55,882 nt of DNA. Source: a virus. The DNA lies in IMG/VR virus record IMGVR_UViG_3300045988_066911, positions 1 through 55,882 of that record; one strand, given 5' to 3'. Position 1 is the stretch's first letter. The number at the start of each line of letters is the position of its first letter. The notes below the pieces were generated by a model. That model saw only the letters and a program-made list of their open reading frames with translations, was not told where the DNA came from and did not search any database. The position numbers were made by a program, and so were the translations under genes. Below, piece after piece: positions 3,610 to 29,791 of the stretch.

Positions 3610-3905
3610 TGCTGATACCAACAGTTAAAGCTAAAGAGTTTGAGAAGTTCGGCTTTAAGAAATGCAAGGGCGAATATGGTAAGCAAGGCTGTTATTACTT
3701 GTGTGTATCAAGAGGTGTAAAAATGTTTTTTGTGAGTGATGCGTATTTTGGCGTTAATGATTGGAGTGATAATGACCCAAGAATCCACAAAGACGCTAAT
3801 TGCAGATACAGAGACCGCAGGACATATCTTGATATTATCTACGAGTTAATCAAGGCGGATATGCTTAGAAGCGATTGTGTGAAAGTGGGTGGTAATGATG
3901 AATGA
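3609..3905 (+). CDS. hypothetical protein
   Basis: TAATG stop/start overlap with the upstream gene; 98 aa. Confidence 0.55.
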   Translation: MLIPTVKAKEFEKFGFKKCKGEYGKQGCYYLCVSRGVKMFFVSDAYFGVNDWSDNDPRIHKDANCRYRDRRTYLDIIYELIKADMLRSDCVKVGGNDE

Positions 3906-5917: not shown

Positions 5918-6198
5918 TTATTATTGATTCAAACATAGTGGATAAGAGCATTGAACATTATGGCTCTGATTTACAGACCGTTGTTTGCATGGAAGAGTGT
6001 TCGGAGCTTATACAGGCAATTAGCAAGATGAAGCGCGGCAAGGACAATAGAGACAATCTGATTGAAGAAATGGCGGACGTTATGATCTGCATGGATATTC
6101 TAAAGCAGGTGTATGGAGTATCTGATAACGAAATTCAGAATTATGTGTGTCAGAAACAGAATAGATGTATTGAAAGGATGAAGAGTGATGAATCATAG
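5914..6198 (+). CDS. MazG-like nucleotide pyrophosphohydrolase
   Basis: EECSELIQAISK...LIEEMADVMI pattern of the MazG/NTP-PPase fold. The GTGA start/stop overlap is preferred over the longer track ORF from 5806, which overlaps the upstream gene. Confidence 0.6.
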   Translation: MIIIDSNIVDKSIEHYGSDLQTVVCMEECSELIQAISKMKRGKDNRDNLIEEMADVMICMDILKQVYGVSDNEIQNYVCQKQNRCIERMKSDES

Positions 6199-6436
6199 GA
6201 GGTGGAAAAAGTCATATAAGAAGCGGTACGGAATACGACCGATTATCTTTCTCGACAAGAAGCGCAAGGATAAGGCTATGGCTATGATACGTGATCATAT
6301 ATCACAGGTTACGATCTACACGCCGGAGAATCAGTATTACTTGGAGATTGGATGCTATTACAACGAGACTTCAATAGATAGCAAGAAATCAATGCTTAAA
6401 GCGTGGGAAGGCGGTGTGGTAGATAATGACGATTGA
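6188..6436 (+). CDS. hypothetical protein
   Basis: ORF in operon; ATG 6188 (GTG 6185 is also possible). Confidence 0.5.
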   Translation: MNHRRWKKSYKKRYGIRPIIFLDKKRKDKAMAMIRDHISQVTIYTPENQYYLEIGCYYNETSIDSKKSMLKAWEGGVVDNDD

Positions 6437-6752
6437 TGAATCAATAGAAAGATTTAAAGCCTTGGCAGAAAAGGGGCATATTATATTTTCAAAAGACCCT
6501 GATATTGCTGAAAAATTAAACAAAGAATATAGGCAAGTTGCAGAATGGCTGGAAGAACTGAAAGCATACAGAGAACAGCATCAGACATTGTGCAATTCAT
6601 ACAATGTACACACCGTTGAAGATATTTACGATAAGGCGATTGACGATTTTATCAAAGCTGTAGATAAACAATGTAGGTATTACGCCGGAGAATGCAAGAA
6701 TCTTACGCGTGATGATCTTCTTAAAATTGCAGAAGATTTGAAAAATACATAG
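6426..6752 (+). CDS. hypothetical protein
   Basis: 108-aa ORF overlapping the upstream gene by 11 nt. Confidence 0.55.
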   Translation: MTIDESIERFKALAEKGHIIFSKDPDIAEKLNKEYRQVAEWLEELKAYREQHQTLCNSYNVHTVEDIYDKAIDDFIKAVDKQCRYYAGECKNLTRDDLLKIAEDLKNT

Positions 6753-6776
6753 AAATCTTTGAGGAGTGATTTATTT

Positions 6777-7586
6777 ATGGGAAACTTTGTAAAGATAGAT
6801 CGAAAGATTCTTGAATGGGAATGGTGGGATGATTTCAACACATTTAGGTTGTTTTTTTACATGCTTGTGTCTGCATATTGGAAAGATGGGTACTATAAAG
6901 GCGAACTGATCGAGCGTGGTTCTTTTCCATCTTCCATATCAAAATTGGCATCTGAAACAGGCTTAACAGATAATGAAATTCGCAACGCGCTAAAGCACCT
7001 TAAAAGCACAGGCGAAATCACAAGCAAAGCACATAGTAAATATAGCGTATTTACTATAAAAAATTACAATTTGTATCAATCAGATAACAAGCAAAAATGC
7101 GATGAAACCACAAGCACCGATGCAATCAAAATGCAATCAGATAACGAACAGATAACGAACATTCCTATTATAAAAGAAGTAAAGAATATAAGAAGTAAAG
7201 AATATAAGAATAATATAGGGGCGAAAACGACACATTATGACGATCCCGATCTTAATTCTGCATTCGCTGAATTTTTGGATATGCGTAAGAAGATTAAAAA
7301 GCCGATTGCTACGAAACAGGCACTTACGCGTATGAAAAATAAAATTGAAAGATTGTCCGGCGGAGATACCAGATTAGCGATTAAGATTCTGAATCAGTCG
7401 GTAGATCATTGTTGGTCGGATGTATATGGACTTAAAAATGATTATAGCAGCAGACATATATCCGAAGATGCAAAGTCTAAATCCGTAACCGATATGCAGT
7501 TAGATTCGCTTGCAGAACGTCAAAAACAGAGCGTTCCGATTATGAGCGATGAAGAAATAAATAAAATGTTTGGAGAGGAGTGGTGA
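6777..7586 (+). CDS. phage replisome organizer / DnaD-like replication protein
   Basis: N-terminal FVKIDRKILEWEWW...SISKLASETGLTDNEIRNALKHL winged-helix pattern is typical of replisome-organizer N-terminal domains. GAGGAG RBS lies 10 nt upstream. Confidence 0.65.
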   Translation: MGNFVKIDRKILEWEWWDDFNTFRLFFYMLVSAYWKDGYYKGELIERGSFPSSISKLASETGLTDNEIRNALKHLKSTGEITSKAHSKYSVFTIKNYNLYQSDNKQKCDETTSTDAIKMQSDNEQITNIPIIKEVKNIRSKEYKNNIGAKTTHYDDPDLNSAFAEFLDMRKKIKKPIATKQALTRMKNKIERLSGGDTRLAIKILNQSVDHCWSDVYGLKNDYSSRHISEDAKSKSVTDMQLDSLAERQKQSVPIMSDEEINKMFGEEW

Positions 7587-11536: not shown

Positions 11537-11573
11537 AAAATGTGTCGCAAGTGTAGTAATGCGGCACATTTTT
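11537..11573 (+). terminator. intrinsic terminator (13-bp stem with A-tract/T-tract arms, possibly bidirectional)
   Basis: AAAATGTGTCGCA-10 nt loop-TGCGGCACATTTT, followed by T. Confidence 0.65.
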
Positions 11574-11590
11574 GATAGGAGGTATAAAAA

Positions 11591-12955
11591 ATGGAATGTG
11601 TTGCATACATGCGTGTCTCGACAGAAAAACAGGCAGAAGAAGGAAACGGACTTGAAAGCCAAAAGCGAGACATAGAATTGTATTGTAGAAAAAACGAATT
11701 GATTATTTCTGATTGGTACATTGATGACGGATATACCGGTGCTAATATGAATAGGCCGGAGTTGCAAAGGCTAATAAACGATTGCGGCAGAAAACGTGTG
11801 AAATGTGTTGTCGCATTCAAACTTGATAGATTGTCAAGAAGTATGGTTGACGGAATATACATGATTGAAAGAGTTTTTCAACCCAACAACGTGCAATTTA
11901 AGTGCGTTCACGATTCAATATCTTATGACAGTCCGATGGAGCAGGCATATACTCAAATGATGGCTGTATTTGCACAGCTTGATAAGAATACTATGATGCT
12001 TCGTATGCGTGGAGGAATGCTGGAACGTGTCAAACAAGGGTATTGGATGGGTGGAGGGAATACGCCTTATTGTTATACATACAGCAAAGAAAAAGGCATA
12101 TTGATACCAATTCCGGAACGAGCAGAACAAGCGAACAAGGCTATTGATTTGTTTATCGCCGGAAATTCCGATGTAGCGATTCAAAGAATTTTAGGATATA
12201 CAAGCGAATTGGTTGTAAGAAGCATATTGACAGGTGTTGTAAACATAGGGATGATTCCGTATAAAGGGAACATATACCAAGGACTTCACGAACCTATTTT
12301 TGATAAAGATAAGTTTGAGATGGCACAGCAAATAAGAAAATCAAGAAGAAGCAAAAAATCTTATTGCCAAAACCTTACTCCCAATATGCTTACAGGTCTG
12401 TGCTATTGTGGAGTTTGCGGTTGCAAGATGCGTTATCAAAAATGGACGAATGGAGTTAGAAAGATTTATTGCTGCTCACGGAATAAGGATTTGTACTATC
12501 TTCCGAACTTTAACAACGATTGCGATAACTCTATAGAATGGGCGGATAATATCGAGAATATTGTTGAATCGGAAATGTTGAAAATATCTGTAAATCTGTC
12601 AAAATATAAGCCAAAAGAAAAAGAAAACAAGATAGACATAATGCAGTCGCAGTTAGATAAGGAAAAATCAAAATTGAAACGGCTGTATGAATTATACGCC
12701 GACGGAAACGATACAGTCTTAGATATGATAAAAGATCAGGAATCAAAAGTAAAAAACCTCGACGATTCAATCAAGGAAGAACAAAAGTCCGGAGACAACA
12801 ATCCGAAAAAGCAATTTGTTTACGAGAATATTAAAAAACTTGCCGATGTTTGGGACGACATCGACAAGCCAGCTAAAAACAAGATATTAAAGACTATAAT
12901 AGACAAGATAATTATAGTCAACGGAAATGTGGAAATTCAATTAAAGAATTTTTAG
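11591..12955 (+). CDS. large serine recombinase (phage integrase)
   Basis: N-terminal resolvase catalytic domain (AYMRVSTEKQ...LDRLSRS), recombinase domain, zinc-ribbon CxxC...C and C-terminal coiled coil; 454 aa. Confidence 0.9.
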   Translation: MECVAYMRVSTEKQAEEGNGLESQKRDIELYCRKNELIISDWYIDDGYTGANMNRPELQRLINDCGRKRVKCVVAFKLDRLSRSMVDGIYMIERVFQPNNVQFKCVHDSISYDSPMEQAYTQMMAVFAQLDKNTMMLRMRGGMLERVKQGYWMGGGNTPYCYTYSKEKGILIPIPERAEQANKAIDLFIAGNSDVAIQRILGYTSELVVRSILTGVVNIGMIPYKGNIYQGLHEPIFDKDKFEMAQQIRKSRRSKKSYCQNLTPNMLTGLCYCGVCGCKMRYQKWTNGVRKIYCCSRNKDLYYLPNFNNDCDNSIEWADNIENIVESEMLKISVNLSKYKPKEKENKIDIMQSQLDKEKSKLKRLYELYADGNDTVLDMIKDQESKVKNLDDSIKEEQKSGDNNPKKQFVYENIKKLADVWDDIDKPAKNKILKTIIDKIIIVNGNVEIQLKNF

Positions 12956-17694: not shown

Positions 17695-17730
17695 AAGAGC
17701 GAAAACAACCGCCCGGAATCGAACCGGGCG
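17695..17730 (-). terminator. intrinsic terminator (7-bp GC stem with a T-arm-like TTCGATT loop)
   Basis: Minus strand: CGCCCGG-TTCGATT-CCGGGCG followed by GTTGTTTTCGCTCTTTTTT. Confidence 0.6.
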
Positions 17731-17746
17731 CAATGCTCCAAGGTTG

Positions 17747-18286: not shown

Positions 18287-18380
18287 AATCTTGTACCATT
18301 TCGGGAATTGTGCTATAATTCCCTTACCTTTCTTTTTTGATTGGTGGCGGCTGTGCTTGGTAGGCGTGCCGCCTTTTTTA

Positions 18381-18450
18381 GTCTGCCATCATCAGAGCCG
18401 GGAGACCATCCCACGGCTGACGCTCCAAGGTCGGAGCGTTTCGGCTAATC
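18381..18450 (-). ncRNA. candidate type II hammerhead ribozyme
   Basis: Minus strand: GCC-GAAA-[CGCUCC GACCUU GGAGCG]-UC / [AGCCG...CGGCU]-CUGAUGA-U-GGC. All core nucleotides are present (CUGAUGA, GAAA, A15.1-U16.1, GUC cleavage triplet). Stems I and III are closed by loops. Stem II is open and short (GGC/GCC) with one extra U after A9. Confidence 0.6.
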
Positions 18451-18738: not shown

Positions 18739-18767
18739 AGTATAACGCTATCGTTATATTATTACAA
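18739..18767 (-). promoter_or_regulatory. promoter of the minus-strand small-gene operon
   Basis: Minus strand: TTGTAA-17 nt-TATACT. The spacer TAATATAACGATAGCGT is identical to the spacer of the + strand promoter at 19211. Confidence 0.6.
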
Positions 18768-18944
18768 GATGGAATAATGCATAAATATATAACGCTATCA
18801 TTATATATTCATTGTGCAATATGTATAAAGCTATCTTTATATGCTGTTTTCTTTCCATATTATATAGTGGCGTTATAATAACGATATCTTTATAAAAGCA
18901 TTGACATATATATATAGTAGCGTTATAATAACGATATCATTATA
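18741..18944. promoter_or_regulatory. array of five 18-bp palindromic operators (consensus TATAACG-N4-CGTTATA); a sixth lies at 19220-19237
   Basis: Sites at 18741-58, 18788-805, 18824-41, 18877-94 and 18927-44. There is also a direct repeat of about 35-50 bp (18861-18910 versus 18911-18960). Confidence 0.75.
18901..18929 (+). promoter_or_regulatory. consensus sigma-70 promoter for the RHH gene
   Basis: TTGACA (18901-06), 17 nt, TATAAT (18924-29). An operator overlaps the -10 box. Confidence 0.75.
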
Positions 18945-18962
18945 TAGGAAGGTGGCGTTATT

Positions 18963-19193
18963 ATGGCAACAAAGGCGCAAGCAAAAGCAACCGCTAAATA
19001 TGAAAAAAACGCATATTTCAAGGCTCTTGTAAGATTCAAAAAAGAAGACGAAGAGCGGATCAGAGCGGCAGCAGGAGAAAGCCTGAACGGATTTATAGTT
19101 AAATGTGTGCTTGACCACTTAGAAGATCAGCAAAAAATCACAGAAGATCAAGCGGATCAAGGCGATCCGGGGAAATGTCCGTTTATGGATTAA
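18963..19193 (+). CDS. ribbon-helix-helix (Arc/CopG-like) DNA-binding protein with acidic DQ-rich tail
   Basis: AKATAKYEKNAYFKALVRFKKEDEERIRAAAGESLNGFIVKCV is a typical RHH pattern; RBS AGGAAGGTGG. Confidence 0.65.
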   Translation: MATKAQAKATAKYEKNAYFKALVRFKKEDEERIRAAAGESLNGFIVKCVLDHLEDQQKITEDQADQGDPGKCPFMD

Positions 19194-19210
19194 AAAAGAT
19201 GGAAAAACTA

Positions 19211-19239
19211 TTGACATAATATAACGATAGCGTTATAAT
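19211..19239 (+). promoter_or_regulatory. consensus sigma-70 promoter with embedded operator
   Basis: TTGACA (19211-16), 17 nt, TATAAT (19234-39). The perfect palindrome TATAACGATAGCGTTATA lies at 19220-37. Confidence 0.75.
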
Positions 19240-20445: not shown

Positions 20446-20477
20446 ATTTGCCAAAGATCAGGAAGGAAGGCGCGAAC

Positions 20478-21140
20478 ATGGAACAGGTCGAACAGGTACA
20501 GGGCATAGAAACCTTTGAAAATGATATAGCTATGTATTTGCGTATCTTTTGCGAAGAACAAGAGATTGAGGACATGCGCGCCGCTTCTCAGTCTGTATAT
20601 AACGCATGCCTTAGATATATCCAACGCCATGTATTTAGAGATAAAGATATATTAAGAGATAAGAGCAATATATATAATATAAATAATAATATTATGAGTA
20701 ACTATAATAGATATAATTATGATCTATTAAATGATATATGTGATTATTATATATATATGTCTATGTTATATGATAAAGAAGTATCTATTATGGGTTTTAG
20801 TAATCTTACTGGTATAGATAATGATACAGTGACTACATGGAATAAAGCGGATCGGCTAAGCTCCTCGAGTATGAGGATATACAAAAAACTTTGTGAAAAT
20901 CGCGAAGAATCGCTTTCCAATAAGCTTGTAACGGGTAACAAGAACCCTGTGGGCGTAATAGCTGTATTAAATCGTCAATTCGGCTGGGCTTCTCCATATA
21001 CGAGCGATTCCAACAGGCAACAGCAACCGCTTACAGCTGCACAGCTTCCAAGATTAGATATACAACCACAAGATATAGCACAGATAGAAGAAAAACCACA
21101 AGATATAGTGATTGATAATGTAAAAGCAGAGTGTACTTAG
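20478..21140 (+). CDS. putative terminase small subunit
   Basis: AGGAAGGAAGG RBS. The C-terminal NKNPVGVIAVLNRQFGWASP motif resembles the conserved C-terminal region of TerS proteins. The central segment is AT-rich and low-complexity. Confidence 0.4.
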   Translation: MEQVEQVQGIETFENDIAMYLRIFCEEQEIEDMRAASQSVYNACLRYIQRHVFRDKDILRDKSNIYNINNNIMSNYNRYNYDLLNDICDYYIYMSMLYDKEVSIMGFSNLTGIDNDTVTTWNKADRLSSSSMRIYKKLCENREESLSNKLVTGNKNPVGVIAVLNRQFGWASPYTSDSNRQQQPLTAAQLPRLDIQPQDIAQIEEKPQDIVIDNVKAECT

Positions 21141-22833: not shown

Positions 22834-22883
22834 ATATTGCACCTCCATAAGCATAATATAACATAAACGGATAAATATTGCAA

Positions 22884-22922
22884 TGCAAAGCAATAAAAAG
22901 CACTGCAAAGCATTGCAAAGCA
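22884..22922. promoter_or_regulatory. three direct TGCAAAGCA repeats in the divergent intergenic region, with an extended -10 (TGGTATAAT) at 22932-22940
   Basis: TGCAAAGCA occurs at 22884, 22904 and 22914. This is a likely operator set for the adjacent RHH protein. Confidence 0.5.
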
Positions 22923-22975
22923 TTACATTTTATGGTATAATACCCATATCAATTAAAGATAAGGGGTGTGTATTT

Positions 22976-23569
22976 ATGATTATAGGCTATGCGAGAGTGT
23001 CAACCAAGGAACAGAACCTTGCAAGACAGTTAGAAGCACTGAAAAATGCTGGATGTGAAAAGATTTACATGGATAAGTTATCCGGCAAGGACTTTGAAAG
23101 ACCTGATTATCAGAAGATGATTTCCAACTTAACAAGCGATGATGTTCTCATTATTCTGTCTATCGACCGGCTCGGTAGAAACTATGACGAGATTATGGAT
23201 GAATGGCGAAGAATCACTAAGACGATCAAAGCAGACATTAAGGTTCTCGATATGCCGCTACTTGACACGACTATCGGAAGAGCTGGCGACTTAACAGACA
23301 CATTTGTGGCAGATCTTGTTCTGCAGATCTTGTCATATGTCGCTAATCTCGAACGTGAGCATATAAGAGAGAGACAGGCAGAAGGGATTGCCATCGCGAA
23401 GAAAGAAGGCAAATACAAGGGCGGTACAAAGAAAACTGTAGATAGTGAATTGCTTGATAGCAATTTGATTCTTTACCGGTCCGGTAAGATCACCAAGTCT
23501 GCATTTGCGAAGAATATCGGTGTATCACGACCGACTTTAGACAGGATTTTGTCAGAATACGCTGCATAA
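22976..23569 (+). CDS. small serine recombinase (resolvase/invertase family)
   Basis: MIIGYARVSTKEQNLARQ...DRLGRN catalytic domain plus a C-terminal HTH; 197 aa. ATG 22976 is preferred over track start 22883. Confidence 0.85.
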   Translation: MIIGYARVSTKEQNLARQLEALKNAGCEKIYMDKLSGKDFERPDYQKMISNLTSDDVLIILSIDRLGRNYDEIMDEWRRITKTIKADIKVLDMPLLDTTIGRAGDLTDTFVADLVLQILSYVANLEREHIRERQAEGIAIAKKEGKYKGGTKKTVDSELLDSNLILYRSGKITKSAFAKNIGVSRPTLDRILSEYAA

Positions 23570-23578
23570 GCGTTTTTA

Positions 23579-23650
23579 TGCTCTATCGCCAAAAGGTAAG
23601 GCACAGGACTTTGACTCCTGCATTTGTTGGTTCGAATCCAACTAGGGCAG
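23579..23650 (+). tRNA. tRNA-Gln (anticodon UUG)
   Basis: Hand-folded cloverleaf. Acceptor TGCTCTA/TAGGGCA (one G-U pair, U1-A72); D arm GCC/GGC; anticodon stem CAGGA/TCCTG with loop CTTTGAC; T arm GTTGG-TTCGAAT-CCAAC. No encoded CCA. Confidence 0.8.
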
Positions 23651-23840
23651 TTTGGATTCTTAATGTTTTTCATTTTGGAATTCTCCTTTCGTAACCCACT
23701 AGCGGAAAGCTGATTAAAGAGCCGTCACAAGGCTCGGTGGGTTTTGCCGGTTGAATACCGGCACGTATAAACCCCTTTTATCCCATGGGGAACACACATT
23801 TCTCCTTTGCGCATTTCCCATCCCCAAGAGGATGCGCACA

Positions 23841-23924
23841 CGAAGCATAGATCAATGGCAGATCATACGGTTTTACACACCCCACGTTTTCCCGTAAATT
23901 CCGGTTCGATTCCGGGTGCTTCGT
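23841..23924 (+). tRNA. tRNA-like cloverleaf with a 21-nt anticodon loop (non-canonical; function unknown)
   Basis: Perfect 7-bp acceptor CGAAGCA/TGCTTCG; D arm GATC-AATGGCA-GATC; T arm TCCGG-TTCGATT-CCGGG. The 5-bp anticodon stem TACGG/CCGTA encloses TTTTACACACCCCACGTTTTC. Confidence 0.5.
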
Positions 23925-24117
23925 ATCTCACAACCTGCATACCCACGAATACGTTTTGACGCAACAAACTATTTTCTTATCGGGTCGTGAGTGTAATATC
24001 TTGTCTGATTCTATGTCACTGATTCGCGGTGCGTGACTAACGAACAGTCTTGGATTTTGCGCGGTGTTCACGCGTGCGCCACACAATTTCGACTAACCCG
24101 CGGCGAAAAAAGTCGCT

Positions 24118-24190
24118 TCGACATGTAGTGTAATTGGCTAGCATAATTCGCATATTGCGATATAGGTGGAGTTCGAGTCTTCCGTGTCGA
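24118..24190 (+). tRNA. tRNA-like element of normal length (73 nt) with an aberrant anticodon arm
   Basis: Acceptor TCGACAT/GTGTCGA (7 bp, one G-U); T arm GGAG-TTCGAGT-CTTC. The anticodon region folds as TCGCA-TAT-TGCGA (triloop). As a 7-nt loop it reads CATATTG, with A at position 33. Confidence 0.4.
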
Positions 24191-24191
24191 T

Positions 24192-24214
24192 TCCCTTGAA
24201 AAGGGACATTTTTT
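24192..24214 (+). terminator. intrinsic terminator directly after the tRNA-like element
   Basis: TCCCTT-GAA-AAGGGA followed by CATTTTTTG. Confidence 0.6.
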
Positions 24215-24283
24215 GTTCTCCCAATGTCGTGGAATCAAACCATGCACATTTTCGGATGTGCATACCGTTACAGGCGGTATTTT

Positions 24284-24368
24284 GCCGATATGGGATAATG
24301 GTATTCCAATAGCTTGCTAAGCTATCCAACATATAAATGTTGTTCGTGTTCGATTCACGATGTCGGCG
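24284..24368 (+). tRNA. tRNA-Ser (anticodon GCU), class II
   Basis: Acceptor GCCGATA/TGTCGGC with G73; U8 G9; D arm GGA..TCC; anticodon stem ATAGC/GCTAT with loop TTGCTAA; long variable arm CAACAT-ATAA-ATGTTG; T arm TCGTG-TTCGATT-CACGA. Confidence 0.85.
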
Positions 24369-24442
24369 TTTTTACATGTAAACCAAAAAGGGAAATAAGT
24401 TGTTGGTTATCTTTGTTTCTCTAAAACCATCTACATGTGAGT

Positions 24443-24644
24443 TGATGCGTGGCGGAATAGGTAAACGCTAATCAATGGTTAAGAAAAAGGTGTGCTATAA
24501 GAATTGCTATTAACAAGTCTGGTAAAAAGCTGTAAGCAATTACACCAATAAATCCGTTAGAAAATAAAAATCCATTTTTCCCTATTCGTAGGTGCAGACT
24601 AACTAACGGAATTTCATGTGTGGTGCAAATCCACACCGCATCAA
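24443..24644 (+). ncRNA. 202-nt tRNA-scaffold RNA: acceptor, D arm and T arm retained, anticodon arm replaced by two long hairpins
   Basis: Acceptor TGATGCG/CGCATCA (7 bp); D arm GCG(G)-AATAGGTAA-(A)CGC; T arm GTGTGG-TGCAAAT-CCACAC. Internal hairpins are GGTGT..AATTGC/GCAATT-ACACC (24489-24546) and AATCCGTTAG/CTAACGG-A-ATT (24551-24613). Confidence 0.4.
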
Positions 24645-24757
24645 GCGGTCGGGTAGTCCCGAATAAGCAGGCGTTATAGTAATCCCTGCTGAAATAAAAA
24701 AATTCCGATGCATGGCATACCAAACCGGTTACAATGCCTGCATCGGAAACCGCACAT

Positions 24758-24841
24758 TGTAGCATATCTCAATGGCAGAGTGGCGAGCGCTCGGAAAACA
24801 ACGATGAAAGCCGGATGGTGGTTCGAATCCACCTGCTACAC
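24758..24841 (+). tRNA. tRNA-like cloverleaf lacking a canonical anticodon arm
   Basis: Perfect acceptor TGTAGCA/TGCTACA; D arm CTC-AATGGCA-GAG; canonical T arm GGTGG-TTCGAAT-CCACC. I tested every register in the 36 nt between the D and T arms and found no 5-bp stem with a 7-nt loop. Confidence 0.45.
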
Positions 24842-24941
24842 TTTACAGCAAACTAGCTTGACGAAGCGAAAAGCACTTCCGCTGTGCCTGTTTGCTGGAT
24901 TTATTGTTTCAGCGGAATAATATCAAGCGGAGGTATTGATT

Positions 24942-25715
24942 ATGGATATAGAGTTTATAAAATCAATAATTTTCCCTAACAATGGGAAAGATAAAAGGTT
25001 GATAATGCGAGGAGATTGTATTGATTCAGAATTATTGGATTTATTAGCAAAGGCAAAAACAAACGACATGTTGAATGCATTTTACAAATATGATAAAAAT
25101 CCAAAAAAGGAAGAATCGTTTTATATAGTCAAGCTGCATTGCAAAAAATGTGGATGCGAATACAGCGAGAATGCCTCAAAAACAAGAGTTGTTGAAATTG
25201 TAAGATCTGTAAGAGACGGATCTGTTAATAAAAACATTTCTTTTTGCGAAAAATGCAAAGATGAAATAAAGCGTAAGGAAAAAGAAGAACGCGACAGATA
25301 TACAGAAGATTGTAAAGCTCAATATAGATCAGAAACAATGAAATATATAAATTATTACGTAAACCCAAACAGAGAGTTTCTAAAAGGGCTTAAAGCTAAT
25401 CAAAAGATATCAATCATAATGAAAAATGGATTTTGGGATAAATATTGGCTCGACGATAATATGGTTGAGAAAAGCGTAAAAGAATTGAAATATAGCGACT
25501 TTCTGGAAACTCCTTATTGGGAAGGAGTAAGGAATTACAAATTAAAAAATTCCAATTATTCATGTGAGTTATGTTCTAAAAAAGGAATAATTCTTCAAGT
25601 ACACCATAAAAAATACGATCGACACGGGGAAGAACACATAAGAAGTGTTGCAGATAAAGATTTAATAGTTCTTTGTTCCGATTGCCACAAGAAGTTTCAC
25701 GATATTGTTATGTGA
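24942..25715 (+). CDS. HNH endonuclease
   Basis: C-terminal CELCSKKG..LQVHHKKY...LIVLCSDCHKKFH HNH motif; GGAGGT RBS 7 nt upstream of ATG 24942. Confidence 0.8.
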   Translation: MDIEFIKSIIFPNNGKDKRLIMRGDCIDSELLDLLAKAKTNDMLNAFYKYDKNPKKEESFYIVKLHCKKCGCEYSENASKTRVVEIVRSVRDGSVNKNISFCEKCKDEIKRKEKEERDRYTEDCKAQYRSETMKYINYYVNPNREFLKGLKANQKISIIMKNGFWDKYWLDDNMVEKSVKELKYSDFLETPYWEGVRNYKLKNSNYSCELCSKKGIILQVHHKKYDRHGEEHIRSVADKDLIVLCSDCHKKFHDIVM

Positions 25716-26808: not shown

Positions 26809-27021
26809 AAATTTACAGGACAAGAACGTGGCGTTTCATATGAAACTACTTTTGAAGGAATGGAAGTTGAGGTAACAGTCCGCAAAATTAGCACAGGAGA
26901 AACAGAATCAGTTAAATACCATTGTTTATATCACCCTGTTTTCGGATATGACAAAGATGATATACAAAATGTCGAGAAAATAACCAATGAATTGATTGAT
27001 AAATATGGGGTGGGAGAATGA
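26806..27021 (+). CDS. hypothetical protein
   Basis: GTG start after GGTGGAAG; 71 aa. Confidence 0.45.
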   Translation: MKFTGQERGVSYETTFEGMEVEVTVRKISTGETESVKYHCLYHPVFGYDKDDIQNVEKITNELIDKYGVGE

Positions 27022-27482
27022 AAGCACTAATTAAATTCATCAAGAATCTAAAATCGTTTTATAGATTCTACAAAGATTATGAGTATAACGGTGCTGAATG
27101 CGAGTTTATTATCGAAAACTATCAAAAAGTATTATGCAGCAGAACAAAAACAATGAGCAAACCGACATATTATGCAGATGCTATTATTCATTATATTGAC
27201 GAATGGTACGAAGATTCTTGGAAATCCACGTACAAATGCGACCCGATTGAGGTAGAAAAACCAAAAATCATGATAACATCTGATGGAAAATTTGCAGAGG
27301 TTTACATTGATGGTAAAAAGGTAAGATGCACCGATATGGAATTGCATTTTATCGGTCATTCAAACCAAAGCCCAATGATTAAAGTTAATGCACGTTGGCA
27401 TAAAACAGACGAAAACGGAAAAACAATTCTGAATGAGAATAAAAATGCCATATTGACAGAGGGAATAAAGATAAATTGCTGA
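27018..27482 (+). CDS. hypothetical protein
   Basis: ATGA overlap; GGGAG RBS; 154 aa. Confidence 0.55.
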   Translation: MKALIKFIKNLKSFYRFYKDYEYNGAECEFIIENYQKVLCSRTKTMSKPTYYADAIIHYIDEWYEDSWKSTYKCDPIEVEKPKIMITSDGKFAEVYIDGKKVRCTDMELHFIGHSNQSPMIKVNARWHKTDENGKTILNENKNAILTEGIKINC

Positions 27483-27892: not shown

Positions 27893-27997
27893 CAAAATTT
27901 TACCGGCTACAGATTGATTGTAGTCGCTACCCTAGAAAAATTATAGGCAGAGATTTCTATGGCATCTCTGCTTGAATGAGCGGAGGTGCTTTTCTTT

Positions 27998-29791
27998 ATG
28001 GCATCTAAAGAGTTAATCAACACAGTAAATCAATATGACAATTTTATAAAGACACATCTTGTCGATGAATCCGTAATATCTGCTTACGTGGAAGCCTGTA
28101 AGGTTGCTATAAATGGCGAAAAGGACATTGAGTATGGGTTACAACTTACGAAGATGTCTAAGGGCATTATAGAGCAATTCTGCATGAAACAAACAGGAGG
28201 AACTATATGGGATTTAGAGAAATATGCACAAGATCATAATACGCCATATGACCTGATAGACAAATATTATGAACTTCTAAAATTGGAAAGCTATTACAAT
28301 TTTGAGAGCTTTATGTATTACATGGAGCGTAAACGTAATTGGAGTAAGCGGTTTTATTATCCAAGAAGAAAGACTTTGAAGGTTGTTGTAAATGACCTTG
28401 AAGATTTGGAAAACAGAAAGATCAAATTTTACGGCTTGTCAATGCCATCCCGTGTAGGAAAATCAACAATATGTATATTCTTCCTTGCTTGGGTTGCAAT
28501 GCGTAGACCAAATAGCCACTCTGCAATGGGCGGACACTCTGGAATCCTTGCAAAAGGATTTTATAAGGAACTTATGAATTTGTTTTCGACAGAAGAATAT
28601 GCATTTGATGAATTATTTTTCTTTTGGAATCCAGAATATGCAAATAAATCTCTTGTAACAGACAAAAGTGCGGATGAGTTTACTATTACATTAGGAGATC
28701 CAGATAGATTTGCAACAGTTACTTGCCGAGGCATTGATGGAACATGGACAGGTGCGGTCGATGTATCAAAAGACGGATATTTGTACGTAGATGACCTGGT
28801 AAGAGATCGTGAACATTCTCTTAGCCCTACTCGAATGGAAAATACGTATCAAGAATATCTGAATAAGATGGTTGACCGTAAAAATGACGGAGCAAGGGAA
28901 TTGATGGTCGGTACATTATGGAATGTCCTTGATCCGTTGGAACGATTACGAAAATCTTATGACGGAAATCCAGAGTACAGATTTAGAAGAATACCGGCAC
29001 TTGATGAAAACGACGAAAGCAATTTTGACTATGAAATAAATGGTTTTTCTACGGCATATTACAGGGATATGAGGGAAAAACTCGATAAGGCAGAGTGGGA
29101 AGCTAAATTTATGCAGCGACCATTTGTACGTGAGGGATTGCTTTTCCCTACGGACGAATTAAGATATTTTAATGGAATATTGCCGGATGGAGATTTTCGC
29201 CGTATTGGAGTTGTGGATGTTGCATGGGGCGGCGGAGATAGTCTATCAATGCCGATTGGTGCAGAATACGATAACGGAGATGTATATATTTATGATTGGG
29301 TATTCAATAAAGGGGCAAAAGAAGTTACATTGCCTTTGGTGGTAGGAAGAATCATTGGGAACGGAATAAGGCAAACACGATTTGAGGGAAATACAGGTGG
29401 AGAATTATACTGCCAATATGTTGATGAAAGGTTGCAGGATCAGAAATATAAATGTTCGTGTACAAGCAGGAAAGCGCCGAATAAAGTCGAAAAGCTATCA
29501 AAAATTATAGCGTATTCCGGAGACATCAAAAGGAAATTTATTTTCCTTGAATCAAAAAAGGTTACACAAGATCAGTTACAGAAAGATGCAGAATTAGGCG
29601 TTGTTCGATACCGAAGAAACGACGAATATCAAGCGGCTATGGACGAATTGACTATGTTTGTATCAATTGGAGAGAACAAACATGATGATGCTGCCGATGG
29701 ACTTACACAGCTTGAAATGTTTATAGAAAATCCAAATAATCTTGCAACGGCAACAGCAACGGCAAATCCGTTTAGGACAGGAGGCTATTAA
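27998..29791 (+). CDS. terminase large subunit
   Basis: Walker A-like SMPSRVGKST, nuclease-domain acidic motifs, size and position upstream of the portal gene; GGAGGTG RBS before ATG 27998. Confidence 0.85.
   Translation: MASKELINTVNQYDNFIKTHLVDESVISAYVEACKVAINGEKDIEYGLQLTKMSKGIIEQFCMKQTGGTIWDLEKYAQDHNTPYDLIDKYYELLKLESYYNFESFMYYMERKRNWSKRFYYPRRKTLKVVVNDLEDLENRKIKFYGLSMPSRVGKSTICIFFLAWVAMRRPNSHSAMGGHSGILAKGFYKELMNLFSTEEYAFDELFFFWNPEYANKSLVTDKSADEFTITLGDPDRFATVTCRGIDGTWTGAVDVSKDGYLYVDDLVRDREHSLSPTRMENTYQEYLNKMVDRKNDGARELMVGTLWNVLDPLERLRKSYDGNPEYRFRRIPALDENDESNFDYEINGFSTAYYRDMREKLDKAEWEAKFMQRPFVREGLLFPTDELRYFNGILPDGDFRRIGVVDVAWGGGDSLSMPIGAEYDNGDVYIYDWVFNKGAKEVTLPLVVGRIIGNGIRQTRFEGNTGGELYCQYVDERLQDQKYKCSCTSRKAPNKVEKLSKIIAYSGDIKRKFIFLESKKVTQDQLQKDAELGVVRYRRNDEYQAAMDELTMFVSIGENKHDDAADGLTQLEMFIENPNNLATATATANPFRTGGY

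Follow-up and report, generated by a model that had tools for sequence, protein, structure and literature searches.

Clusters of transfer RNA (tRNA) genes in phages are usually explained by codon usage or by the replacement of tRNAs that the host destroys. The cluster of phage T4 also contains two stable RNAs that are not tRNAs, RNA C and RNA D (the species 1 and 2 RNAs), which neighbor segB, a gene for a homing endonuclease. In its fold, RNA C has a canonical T arm (CCGGG-UUCGAAU-CCCGG) close to the 3' end and an imperfect terminal stem, and two large hairpins stand in for the rest of the tRNA. The role of the pair is still open (PMC3014915). The subject of this analysis is a locus of related design in a phage-like genome of 55,882 nucleotides, IMG/VR record IMGVR_UViG_3300045988_066911, analyzed whole and called the window from here on. 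Positions 23570-24935 of the window (1.37 kb) appear to be an array of non-coding RNAs, comprising two ordinary tRNAs and four tRNA-shaped RNAs that are predicted not to decode. The tRNA body of one of these four, called frame A, looks like a natural RNA scaffold because that one body carries at least 11 unrelated inserts in more than 100 related phages. The units of the array, with the odd ones numbered by their order along it, are as follows.

23579-23650, + strand: tRNA-Gln(UUG), called by ARAGORN and scoring 62 bits against Rfam tRNA; a clean cloverleaf of bacterial type (U1-A72), with CCA not encoded.
23840-23925, + strand: unit 2, tRNA-shaped, with a 7-bp acceptor stem, D arm GATC/GATC with loop AATGGCA, T-loop TTCGATT, and a 5-bp stem TACGG/CCGTA carrying a 21-nt loop.
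24118-24190, + strand: unit 3, tRNA-shaped, 73 nt, with acceptor stem TCGACAT/GTGTCGA, D stem GTGT/GCAT, T-loop TTCGAGT, and the stub TCGCA-TAT-TGCGA (5 bp with a triloop).
24284-24368, + strand: tRNA-Ser(GCU), class II, called by ARAGORN (as 24283-24369) and scoring 53.6 bits in Rfam, with a fold z-score of -4.6.
24443-24643, + strand: unit 5 (frame A), 201 nt; the 7-bp acceptor stem is followed by a tRNA-Leu-like D arm and a 12-nt linker, a 4-bp stem leads into two long hairpins (125 nt), and the T stem has 6 bp and the loop TGCAAAT.
24758-24841, + strand: unit 6, tRNA-shaped, with a D arm, acceptor stem TGTAGCA/TGCTACA and T arm GGTGG-TTCGAAT-CCACC; the anticodon position is filled by an irregular 33-nt element that includes the palindrome GAGCGCTC.

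Judged by analogy, T4 RNA C is the closest precedent for units 2, 3, 5 and 6. The fit is one of architecture only, meaning a predicted lack of decoding, a place in a tRNA cluster, a T arm at the 3' end, and a terminal stem. The units here differ in having a full 7-bp acceptor stem and a GG-bearing D arm, in having many interiors per frame, and in having a Gram-positive host. The locus showed no homology to T4 rnaC or rnaD by blastn against 50,697 phage records, T4 being absent from the organisms tallied; nearly all matches fell on the tRNA-Gln part, including all of those to Listeria and Staphylococcus phages. A second likeness is to a man-made RNA. Ponchon and Dardel reportedly engineered a "tRNA scaffold" for recombinant RNA, in which the RNA of interest replaces the anticodon arm. 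As in unit 5, the acceptor, D and T arms are kept and the cargo sits at the anticodon stem, the rationale being processing by tRNA enzymes and protection from nucleases. The frame here differs in being natural and in exchanging its cargo between genomes.

Other RNAs that, like the units here, keep a tRNA-like acceptor/T module with no decoding are transfer-messenger RNA (tmRNA), YrlA, and the mammalian mascRNA. The units differ from tmRNA, which has G3:U70, no D stem, and an open reading frame (ORF) for its tag. A tmRNA identity is rejected for the locus since neither ARAGORN nor Rfam calls one, position 3:70 of unit 5 is A-U, and a short internal ORF is not conserved. A Y-RNA-like identity is also rejected. 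Rfam gives no match to YrlA or to either of the other two families, and the ends of the units form the acceptor stem. This is the reverse of the topology of the bacterial YrlA, in which both RNA ends belong to the Ro-binding stem and the tRNA-like domain lies inside. YrlA-like RNAs have been found in phages too (PMC4201824). Irregular tRNAs and allo-tRNAs are described from metagenomes and phages, and some were proposed as regulatory non-coding RNAs (PMC5389517). Unit 5 resembles the irregular ones in its non-standard 7/6 acceptor/T stack, but allo-tRNAs retain a 7-nt anticodon loop, and several decode in vivo, while the four odd units have no such loop. Fremin et al. 2023 report, among structured RNAs predicted in IMG/VR, tRNA-like candidates of gut phages, including an 86-nt RNA of Lachnospiraceae phages with high expression in faecal small-RNA-seq (PMC10690425). 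These candidates may overlap units of the present lineage, and the paper does not describe anticodon-arm loss or cargo swapping. We found no description in the literature of a natural tRNA frame with interchangeable interiors. The natural frame with swapped interiors is what appears to be new here; non-decoding tRNA-like RNAs in phage tRNA clusters were already known.

The locus contains only short ORFs on either strand, the longest having 97 amino acids on the - strand and 70 on the + strand, and they run across blocks that are deleted or replaced in close relatives. A first-pass annotation of the window had likewise seen no credible ORF here, and had folded six tRNA-like units on the + strand by hand. 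A custom scan for the combination of T-loop, T stem, 7-bp acceptor stem and GG-bearing D arm recovers the same units, exactly six frames in 1.3 kb on the + strand, with the T-loops as that annotation gave them; the other 54 kb, on both strands, has few matches, weak and scattered. All six units carry the 7-bp acceptor stem, the GG-bearing D arm, and the T arm with its T-loop, and these are supported by compensatory changes.

What divides the six is the anticodon side. The Gln and Ser units, taken as canonical from the start, have a 5-bp stem, a 7-nt loop with U33 and a purine at 37, and a conserved anticodon. The anticodon loop TTGCTAA of tRNA-Ser is fixed in about 40 variants and the stems covary. 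Units 2, 3, 5 and 6 are without the 5-bp/7-nt arm; in its place unit 2 has a 21-nt loop, unit 3 a triloop, unit 5 a two-hairpin domain of 125 nt, and unit 6 an irregular element of 33 nt. Their loop length and sequence vary among relatives and no anticodon is conserved. This is the reverse of the pattern in canonical tRNAs of the lineage, in which anticodon loops are invariant and stems drift by compensation. Comparison with the related IMG/VR contigs shows the odd units to be selected RNAs and not decayed genes.

Relatives were collected as 2 sets. The first, using the small serine recombinase encoded just upstream of the array as the query, has 27 IMG/VR contigs. In these the RNA locus has about 76-97% identity over aligned blocks, mostly 88-97%, and is modular. 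Relatives with about 90-97% identity differ in which units they have, each unit coming and going independently; some have no tRNA-Ser and none of its leader, and the middle of unit 5 is replaced by different sequence. The last slot of the array is filled by unit 6, by a class II tRNA-Tyr(GTA), by a tRNA with an 8-nt loop, or by a 108-nt tRNA-shaped RNA, depending on the relative. An invertible segment was considered and ruled out, every relative being colinear. The second set came from an IMG/VR search with the 3' half of the unit 5 frame, finding at least 120 contigs, mostly of 50-60 kb, many of them human-associated. The representative genomes of GTDB gave a single match, a contig in a Lachnospiraceae metagenome-assembled genome (MAG), which is probably the phage itself. 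The array belongs to a widespread human-gut phage lineage, whose host is probably in Lachnospiraceae or a related group of Clostridia.

Unit 5 was aligned as 16 distinct sequences of 200-201 nt and consensus-folded, giving 9 helices and 51 pairs, with 99.9% of cells paired. Nine of the 51 pairs are changed on both sides, versus 3.3 ± 1.0 in shuffles (0 of 500 reach 9), and in a slid control, with partners moved by 1-3 columns, no more than 2 pairs show double changes. Of the 9 compensatory pairs, four fall within the interior hairpins and a fifth in their enclosing stem; purifying selection on structure is seen in the insert as well as in the body. The 4-bp closing stem is GAAA/UUUC, changing to GAGA/UCUC in some relatives. 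In a wider sample of this interior class (89 loci, 33 of them distinct), the T stem is compensated from GTGTGG/CCACAC to GCGTGG/CCACGC, and in 89 of 89 loci the interior found in the window sits in frame A. The hairpins carry large conserved internal loops. The discriminator position, directly after the acceptor stem, is A. There is no ARAGORN call for unit 5 and no Rfam tRNA match even at E ≤ 10. A small peptide from a 12-codon ORF in the linker was rejected, the ORF not being conserved and its substitutions tracking the RNA pairing.

Module swapping is seen in the frame of unit 5. Frame A recurs in IMG/VR, in at least 120 contigs, and its interiors there form at least 11 unrelated classes, with total unit lengths of about 85-88, 100, 109, 113, 128, 138, 143-145, 154-155, 157-158, 200-201 and 249-250 nt. 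One frame-A sequence, 100% identical throughout, carries 5 of the interior classes (totals of 113, 128, 138, 154 and 200 nt), and such exchange inside identical frames is best explained by recombination in the frames. The body meanwhile drifts with its pairing intact, the acceptor stem going from C-G to U-A by way of a U.G intermediate, and the D stem going from GGCG/CGCU to GACG/CGUU, GAUG/CAUU or GGAG/CUCU and from UGC/GCA to UAC/GUA. Among the matches listed, no frame-A class has a 7-nt anticodon loop. The shortest members are class II tRNA-like; their 5-bp stem is capped by a loop of 3 or 5 nt, and a variable-arm hairpin comes next. Some of the interiors contain additional T-arm-like hairpins, and the 113-nt class has a palindromic loop, UCGCGA.

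A separate observation on frame A is that the D-loop base before the GG (A or G) tracks position 2 of the T-loop (G or U): apart from one exception, AUAGG occurs alongside UGC and AUGGG alongside UUC. The correlation may reflect a tertiary contact that covaries at the elbow, or just lineage linkage with the C/U variant of the acceptor stem. A second frame, CGGATAG...CTATCCG, found in the last slot of relatives, also has alternative interiors, with lengths of 68-138 nt. It occurs in two forms, one with a 6-bp stem and a 5-nt loop, UUUAU or UUCAU, and one with 8-nt loops (e.g., L067 6108-6179, L071, L012 5772-5853, L072 and L106, these being our labels for related contigs). The 5-nt loops could be read as the anticodons UUA and UCA, i.e., as stop-codon suppressors. 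Several otherwise normal tRNAs of relatives (Cys, Glu and Pro) seem to have C rather than U at position 33.

The short odd units are of interest for what stands in place of the anticodon arm. Unit 2 is fitted by ARAGORN as a tRNA-Val(tac), but the fold shows the 5-bp stem with a 21-nt loop instead, and there is no Rfam tRNA match even at E ≤ 10. The core of the loop, TTTNCACACCCCA (CACACCCCA; UUUNCACACCCCA), is invariant in 9 variants; the loop length ranges over 13-21 nt, and the "TAC" is not kept. The T stem goes from C-G through U.G to U-A among the variants. A similar C/A-rich loop, of 20 nt on a 5-bp stem, is present in an unrelated frame of relatives. Antisense targets for the unit 2 loop in the window are not above chance (8 matches versus 5.4 ± 2.6 expected), and C-rich motifs in the locus are about as frequent as its higher C content predicts (n = 3 for CCCC). 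Unit 3 has no ARAGORN call and no Rfam tRNA match even at E ≤ 10. Its triloop stem is TCACG-TAT-TGTGG in 4 relatives, which is a G-C to A-U change plus two wobble changes, and its D stem is compensated (GCGT/ACGC) in the copy from the MAG, L187.

Unit 6 is rare, being found in 11 contigs; in some relatives its slot is taken by the tRNA-Tyr(GTA) mentioned above or by other frames. In a focused scan it scores 36.6 bits against Rfam tRNA (gathering threshold 29), with 25 nt where the model has 13 anticodon-arm positions, and it is not reported in the scan of the whole window. The first-pass annotation was right that all four odd units are without a normal anticodon arm, but its statement that the last one has no arm at all needs correction, as a short closing stem surrounds an irregular 25-nt element containing the palindrome. 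The palindrome goes from GAGCGCTC to GTGCGCAC by compensation in relatives (GAGCGCUC to GUGCGCAC in RNA letters). Across units 2, 3 and 6, the changes in the frame and the stub are compensatory or wobble-compatible.

Rfam was searched at gathering and at permissive thresholds with the window, the locus alone, and about 25 related loci. The families above gathering in these scans were tRNA, int-alpA, Hammerhead_II, skipping-rope and RAGATH-27 only, and the interiors matched no known family in any of them. Matches in the locus to CRISPR-DR51, EGFOA-assoc-1 and snoRNAs are far under gathering and were treated as chance. What lies between and after the units is itself structured, as follows.

23651-23839, + strand: structured spacer with hairpins at 23654-23683, 23745-23763 and 23772-23790, a three-way element spanning 23693-23743 and, over 23808-23838, a leader hairpin whose loop is C-rich.
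23926-24117, + strand: conserved spacer, predicted to form hairpins (15 variants in alifold, with 50 pairs, 1 compensatory).
24192-24214, + strand: terminator-like hairpin and T run, directly after unit 3.
24229-24281, + strand: hairpins before tRNA-Ser, including ATGCACA/TGTGCAT at 24242-24263 (25 pairs, one-sided changes only).
24371-24441, + strand: leader hairpin spanning the entire spacer from tRNA-Ser to unit 5 (alifold on 11 variants, 22 pairs, 5 compensatory).
24645-24757, + strand: two covarying hairpins, 24666-24690 and 24705-24746, with 2 compensatory pairs, and the conserved leader AAACCGCACA (24747-24756).
24846-24914, + strand: int-alpA RNA motif, RF02996 (45.8 bits versus a gathering threshold of 35.8), closing the array upstream of the ribosome-binding site of the next gene.

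A hairpin precedes every unit, and those already pointed out at 23808-23838, 24242-24263 and 24705-24746, together with the terminator-like one at 24192-24214, are present in this analysis too. The interior of the 24705-24746 hairpin is swappable among relatives, and deletions in two relatives, L015 and L024, start just past the terminator-like hairpin. The spacers 23651-23839 and 24192-24282 are conserved and fold well, with a divergence too small for compensatory evidence. For the former, alifold on 13 variants gives 47 pairs with wobble-compatible changes and none doubly compensated, and in one variant an insertion of 5 nt makes the 23745 hairpin longer. The element at 23693-23743 within this spacer has AACCCAC/GTGGGTT as its 7-bp terminal stem, together with a small hairpin and the 5-bp/7-nt hairpin GAGCC-GTCACAA-GGCTC, and is invariant in relatives. 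With an anticodon-arm-like hairpin (loop GUCACAA) and no T arm, it is a mirror image of the odd units. In the related arrays that were scanned, the int-alpA motif comes after the final tRNA or tRNA-like gene and scores 38.6-52.9 bits. Its closing helix is followed by a U-rich tract. In enterobacterial islands the int-alpA motif likewise follows a tRNA gene. Here it has the appearance of a regulated terminator that separates the RNA array from the operon downstream.

The reading we prefer, with a probability of roughly 0.45, is that the tRNA body would serve as a scaffold for processing and stability and the anticodon-side domain would be the functional, exchangeable module. RNase P, RNase Z and the CCA-adding enzyme recognize a tRNA by its acceptor stem, T arm and D/T elbow. 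Because these determinants are the conserved parts, RNase P and RNase Z would be expected to cut the odd units precisely out of a polycistronic precursor, and the excised units would be as stable as a tRNA. The anticodon side would then be repurposed, in unit 2 as a conserved single-stranded C/A-rich loop, in unit 3 as a capped stub, and in unit 5 as the 125-nt two-hairpin domain. We infer transcription and processing from these sequence features, and likewise an action of the module in trans, on some factor of the host or the phage that may be a target in defence or takeover. Modules would be exchanged between phages by recombination in the conserved frames. Conjecturally, the adjacent free-standing HNH genes may help that exchange; endonuclease genes next to phage tRNA clusters are known, T4 segB being an example. 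Among the explanations the first-pass annotation had offered, RNAs scaffolded on tRNA and released by RNase P and RNase Z fit best, with decoys a live rival, especially for the short units, and the two others, large ornate RNAs and introns, faring badly as described below. Since the interiors are under selection, the domain on the anticodon side presumably has some activity, and we favor the scaffold-plus-module reading for that reason.

A more ambitious version, possible and put forward tentatively, has the modular tRNA scaffold as an expression platform for interchangeable domains (at least 11 types in one frame, with others elsewhere) that would be trans-acting effectors against host factors or defences. 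It would be an RNA counterpart of the hypervariable islands of anti-defence proteins, with cassettes exchanged by way of the frames.

Several points weigh against these readings. Units 2, 3 and 6 are backed by few variants (4-10), and unit 5 is the better supported. The contigs of the relatives are metagenomic, many of them out of a single large data set, and phylogenetically related, so that the compensatory changes stand for fewer independent events than there are cells counted. The acceptor/T stack of unit 5 is 7 + 6 = 13 bp versus the canonical 12, which could impair recognition by tRNA enzymes. No motif shared among interiors, target or partner protein was found. The location of the array inside the packaging/late region is not an obvious fit for an early anti-defence role.

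The main rival, which we consider doubtful, is that the tRNA body itself would be a decoy, soaking up or misleading a host enzyme that reads the acceptor/T/D elbow. Candidates for such an enzyme are abortive-infection toxins that modify or cleave tRNA, a synthetase, or a processing enzyme. A loop of any size except 7 nt would then mean no decoding and no cutting by anticodon nucleases. Units 2, 3 and 6 and the 85-88-nt members of frame A suit a decoy by keeping tRNA dimensions with loops of 3, 5, 8 or 13-21 nt, and frames are far more conserved than interiors. The unusual anticodon loops of relatives (the 6-bp stem with a 5-nt loop, the 8-nt loops, and C33) suggest pressure on the loop. Loops of any size but 7, taken with the 13-bp stack of unit 5, suggest avoidance of decoding, and this fits the decoy model too. 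The D arm and discriminator A of frame A also resemble tRNA-Leu, and the anticodon of tRNA-Leu is not read by its synthetase, LeuRS. However, interiors of 100-180 nt with covarying helices of their own would be unneeded in a pure decoy, as would the invariant single-stranded loop core of unit 2.

It is unlikely that the frames are processing punctuation only, i.e., RNase P and RNase Z signals that free their neighbors (the hairpins, int-alpA, and the downstream mRNA) with the anticodon side as filler. The preserved parts are exactly the determinant set of these two enzymes, every spacer is a hairpin abutting the frames, and the array heads a protein-coding operon behind int-alpA, all as punctuation would have it. 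Filler would not be expected to fall into discrete classes conserved within each class and bearing compensatory changes (9 pairs in unit 5), nor to include the compensated triloop stem of unit 3 and the invariant loop core of unit 2.

Three further explanations are very improbable. Degenerate copies do occur in phage tRNA clusters, units 3 and 5 are uncalled by ARAGORN and Rfam and unit 2 is called by ARAGORN only, but decaying pseudogenes or assembly noise would not have 99.9% of cells paired, compensatory changes in frames and interiors alike, and recurrence in dozens to more than 100 independent contigs; the argument made at the outset, that decay would not spare the acceptor, D and T arms, is strengthened by frames that are near-invariant or compensated next to an anticodon side that is variable or swapped. 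Intron-bearing tRNAs that decode normally once spliced, another early suggestion, find some encouragement in the ARAGORN model of unit 2 with its extra loop nucleotides and in an RtcB gene near the tRNA cluster of a distant phage, Dulem virus 39, but the flanks of the inserts rebuild no 5-bp/7-nt anticodon arm, no anticodon is conserved (including the "TAC"), no group I or group II intron model matches, most of the inserts, at 14-180 nt, fall short of group I size, the host and the tRNA types (the U1-A72 tRNA-Gln and the class II tRNA-Tyr) are both bacterial, and no RtcB, RNA-repair protein or splicing endonuclease is among the 30 window proteins scanned. The remaining idea, that the units are pieces of one large ornate RNA (GOLLD, ROOL or similar) or a guide RNA for the adjacent serine recombinase, draws on the tRNA-side setting in a Firmicutes-type phage and on the large conserved internal loops of unit 5 near a recombinase gene, but GOLLD, ROOL and HEARO have no match in the window or the related loci at either threshold, and modules are lost, gained and swapped independently. 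The guide was rejected in addition because the recombinase is present in just 8 of 68 frame-A loci with enough upstream sequence, and the downstream gene varies too.

The array sits in a genome with G+C of 38.7% and nearly all of its genes on the + strand. Protein scans identify a replication module with SSB, DnaD-like and DnaC-like loaders, and a methyltransferase. The genes that help to orient the locus are the following.

11591-12955: large serine integrase.
20448-21140: gp3-like small terminase.
22883-23569: small serine recombinase of the resolvase/invertase type (Pfam Resolvase, 2e-31).
24936-25715: free-standing HNH gene, directly 3' of the array.
27018-27482: free-standing HNH gene of the LHH type.
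27986-29791: large terminase, 41% identical to its counterpart in Clostridium phage Maintenon.

The array is thus between the small recombinase and the HNH gene, within the interval from terS to terL. Maintenon, whose host is [Clostridium] innocuum, is the nearest cultured phage, and its terS-tRNA-terL synteny matches; the tRNAs it has there are canonical only. In Maintenon (L188) there is also an unannotated tRNA at 11549-11617, with anticodon CAT, a Rfam score of 41.1 bits, T loop UGCAAUU, and a D loop without GG, in a region where the deposited annotation has small hypothetical ORFs. In Dulem virus 39 (L001, PP511791), a distant relative from lemur gut, a RAGATH-27 RNA is found within the tRNA cluster at 3769-3852 (77.2 bits), and the annotated RtcB RNA ligase is at 6196-7401, about 1 kb past the last tRNA of the cluster.

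Elsewhere in the window, a type II hammerhead ribozyme is on the - strand at 18377-18446 (64.6 bits, gathering threshold 37), just downstream of a small minus-strand ORF in the gene-poor stretch of 16.7-20.4 kb, and the same hammerhead is found in the relatives L013 (388-457) and L107 (249-317). From 18741 to 19237, between small divergent genes, there are six copies of the 18-bp palindrome TATAACGNTANCGTTATA with at most 2 mismatches, versus 0.02 expected; they look like operator sites of a lysogeny switch. At about 17700-17745 on the - strand, at the end of a small minus-strand ORF, a 7-bp hairpin CGCCCGG-TTCGATT-CCGGGCG has a perfect T-loop, is flanked by CAACC/GGTTG, and is followed by a T run. 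This may be a terminator resembling an acceptor-T minihelix, a remnant of a tRNA 3' half, or an attachment site.

Beyond the usual explanations of phage tRNA clusters, the present array makes clear that a cluster may in addition contain RNAs that were selected to resemble tRNAs and yet are predicted to be unable to decode, with one tRNA body being a chassis for many unrelated structured inserts in more than 100 gut phage genomes. Mining for further members of the family is easy with so constant a frame, and exchange of the swapped inserts offers a way to test function. If the units are expressed and processed, they would be a natural precedent for the engineered tRNA scaffold and a new pool of structured phage RNAs outside the known families, and they would give a handle on the 50-year-old question of what T4 RNA C and RNA D are for.

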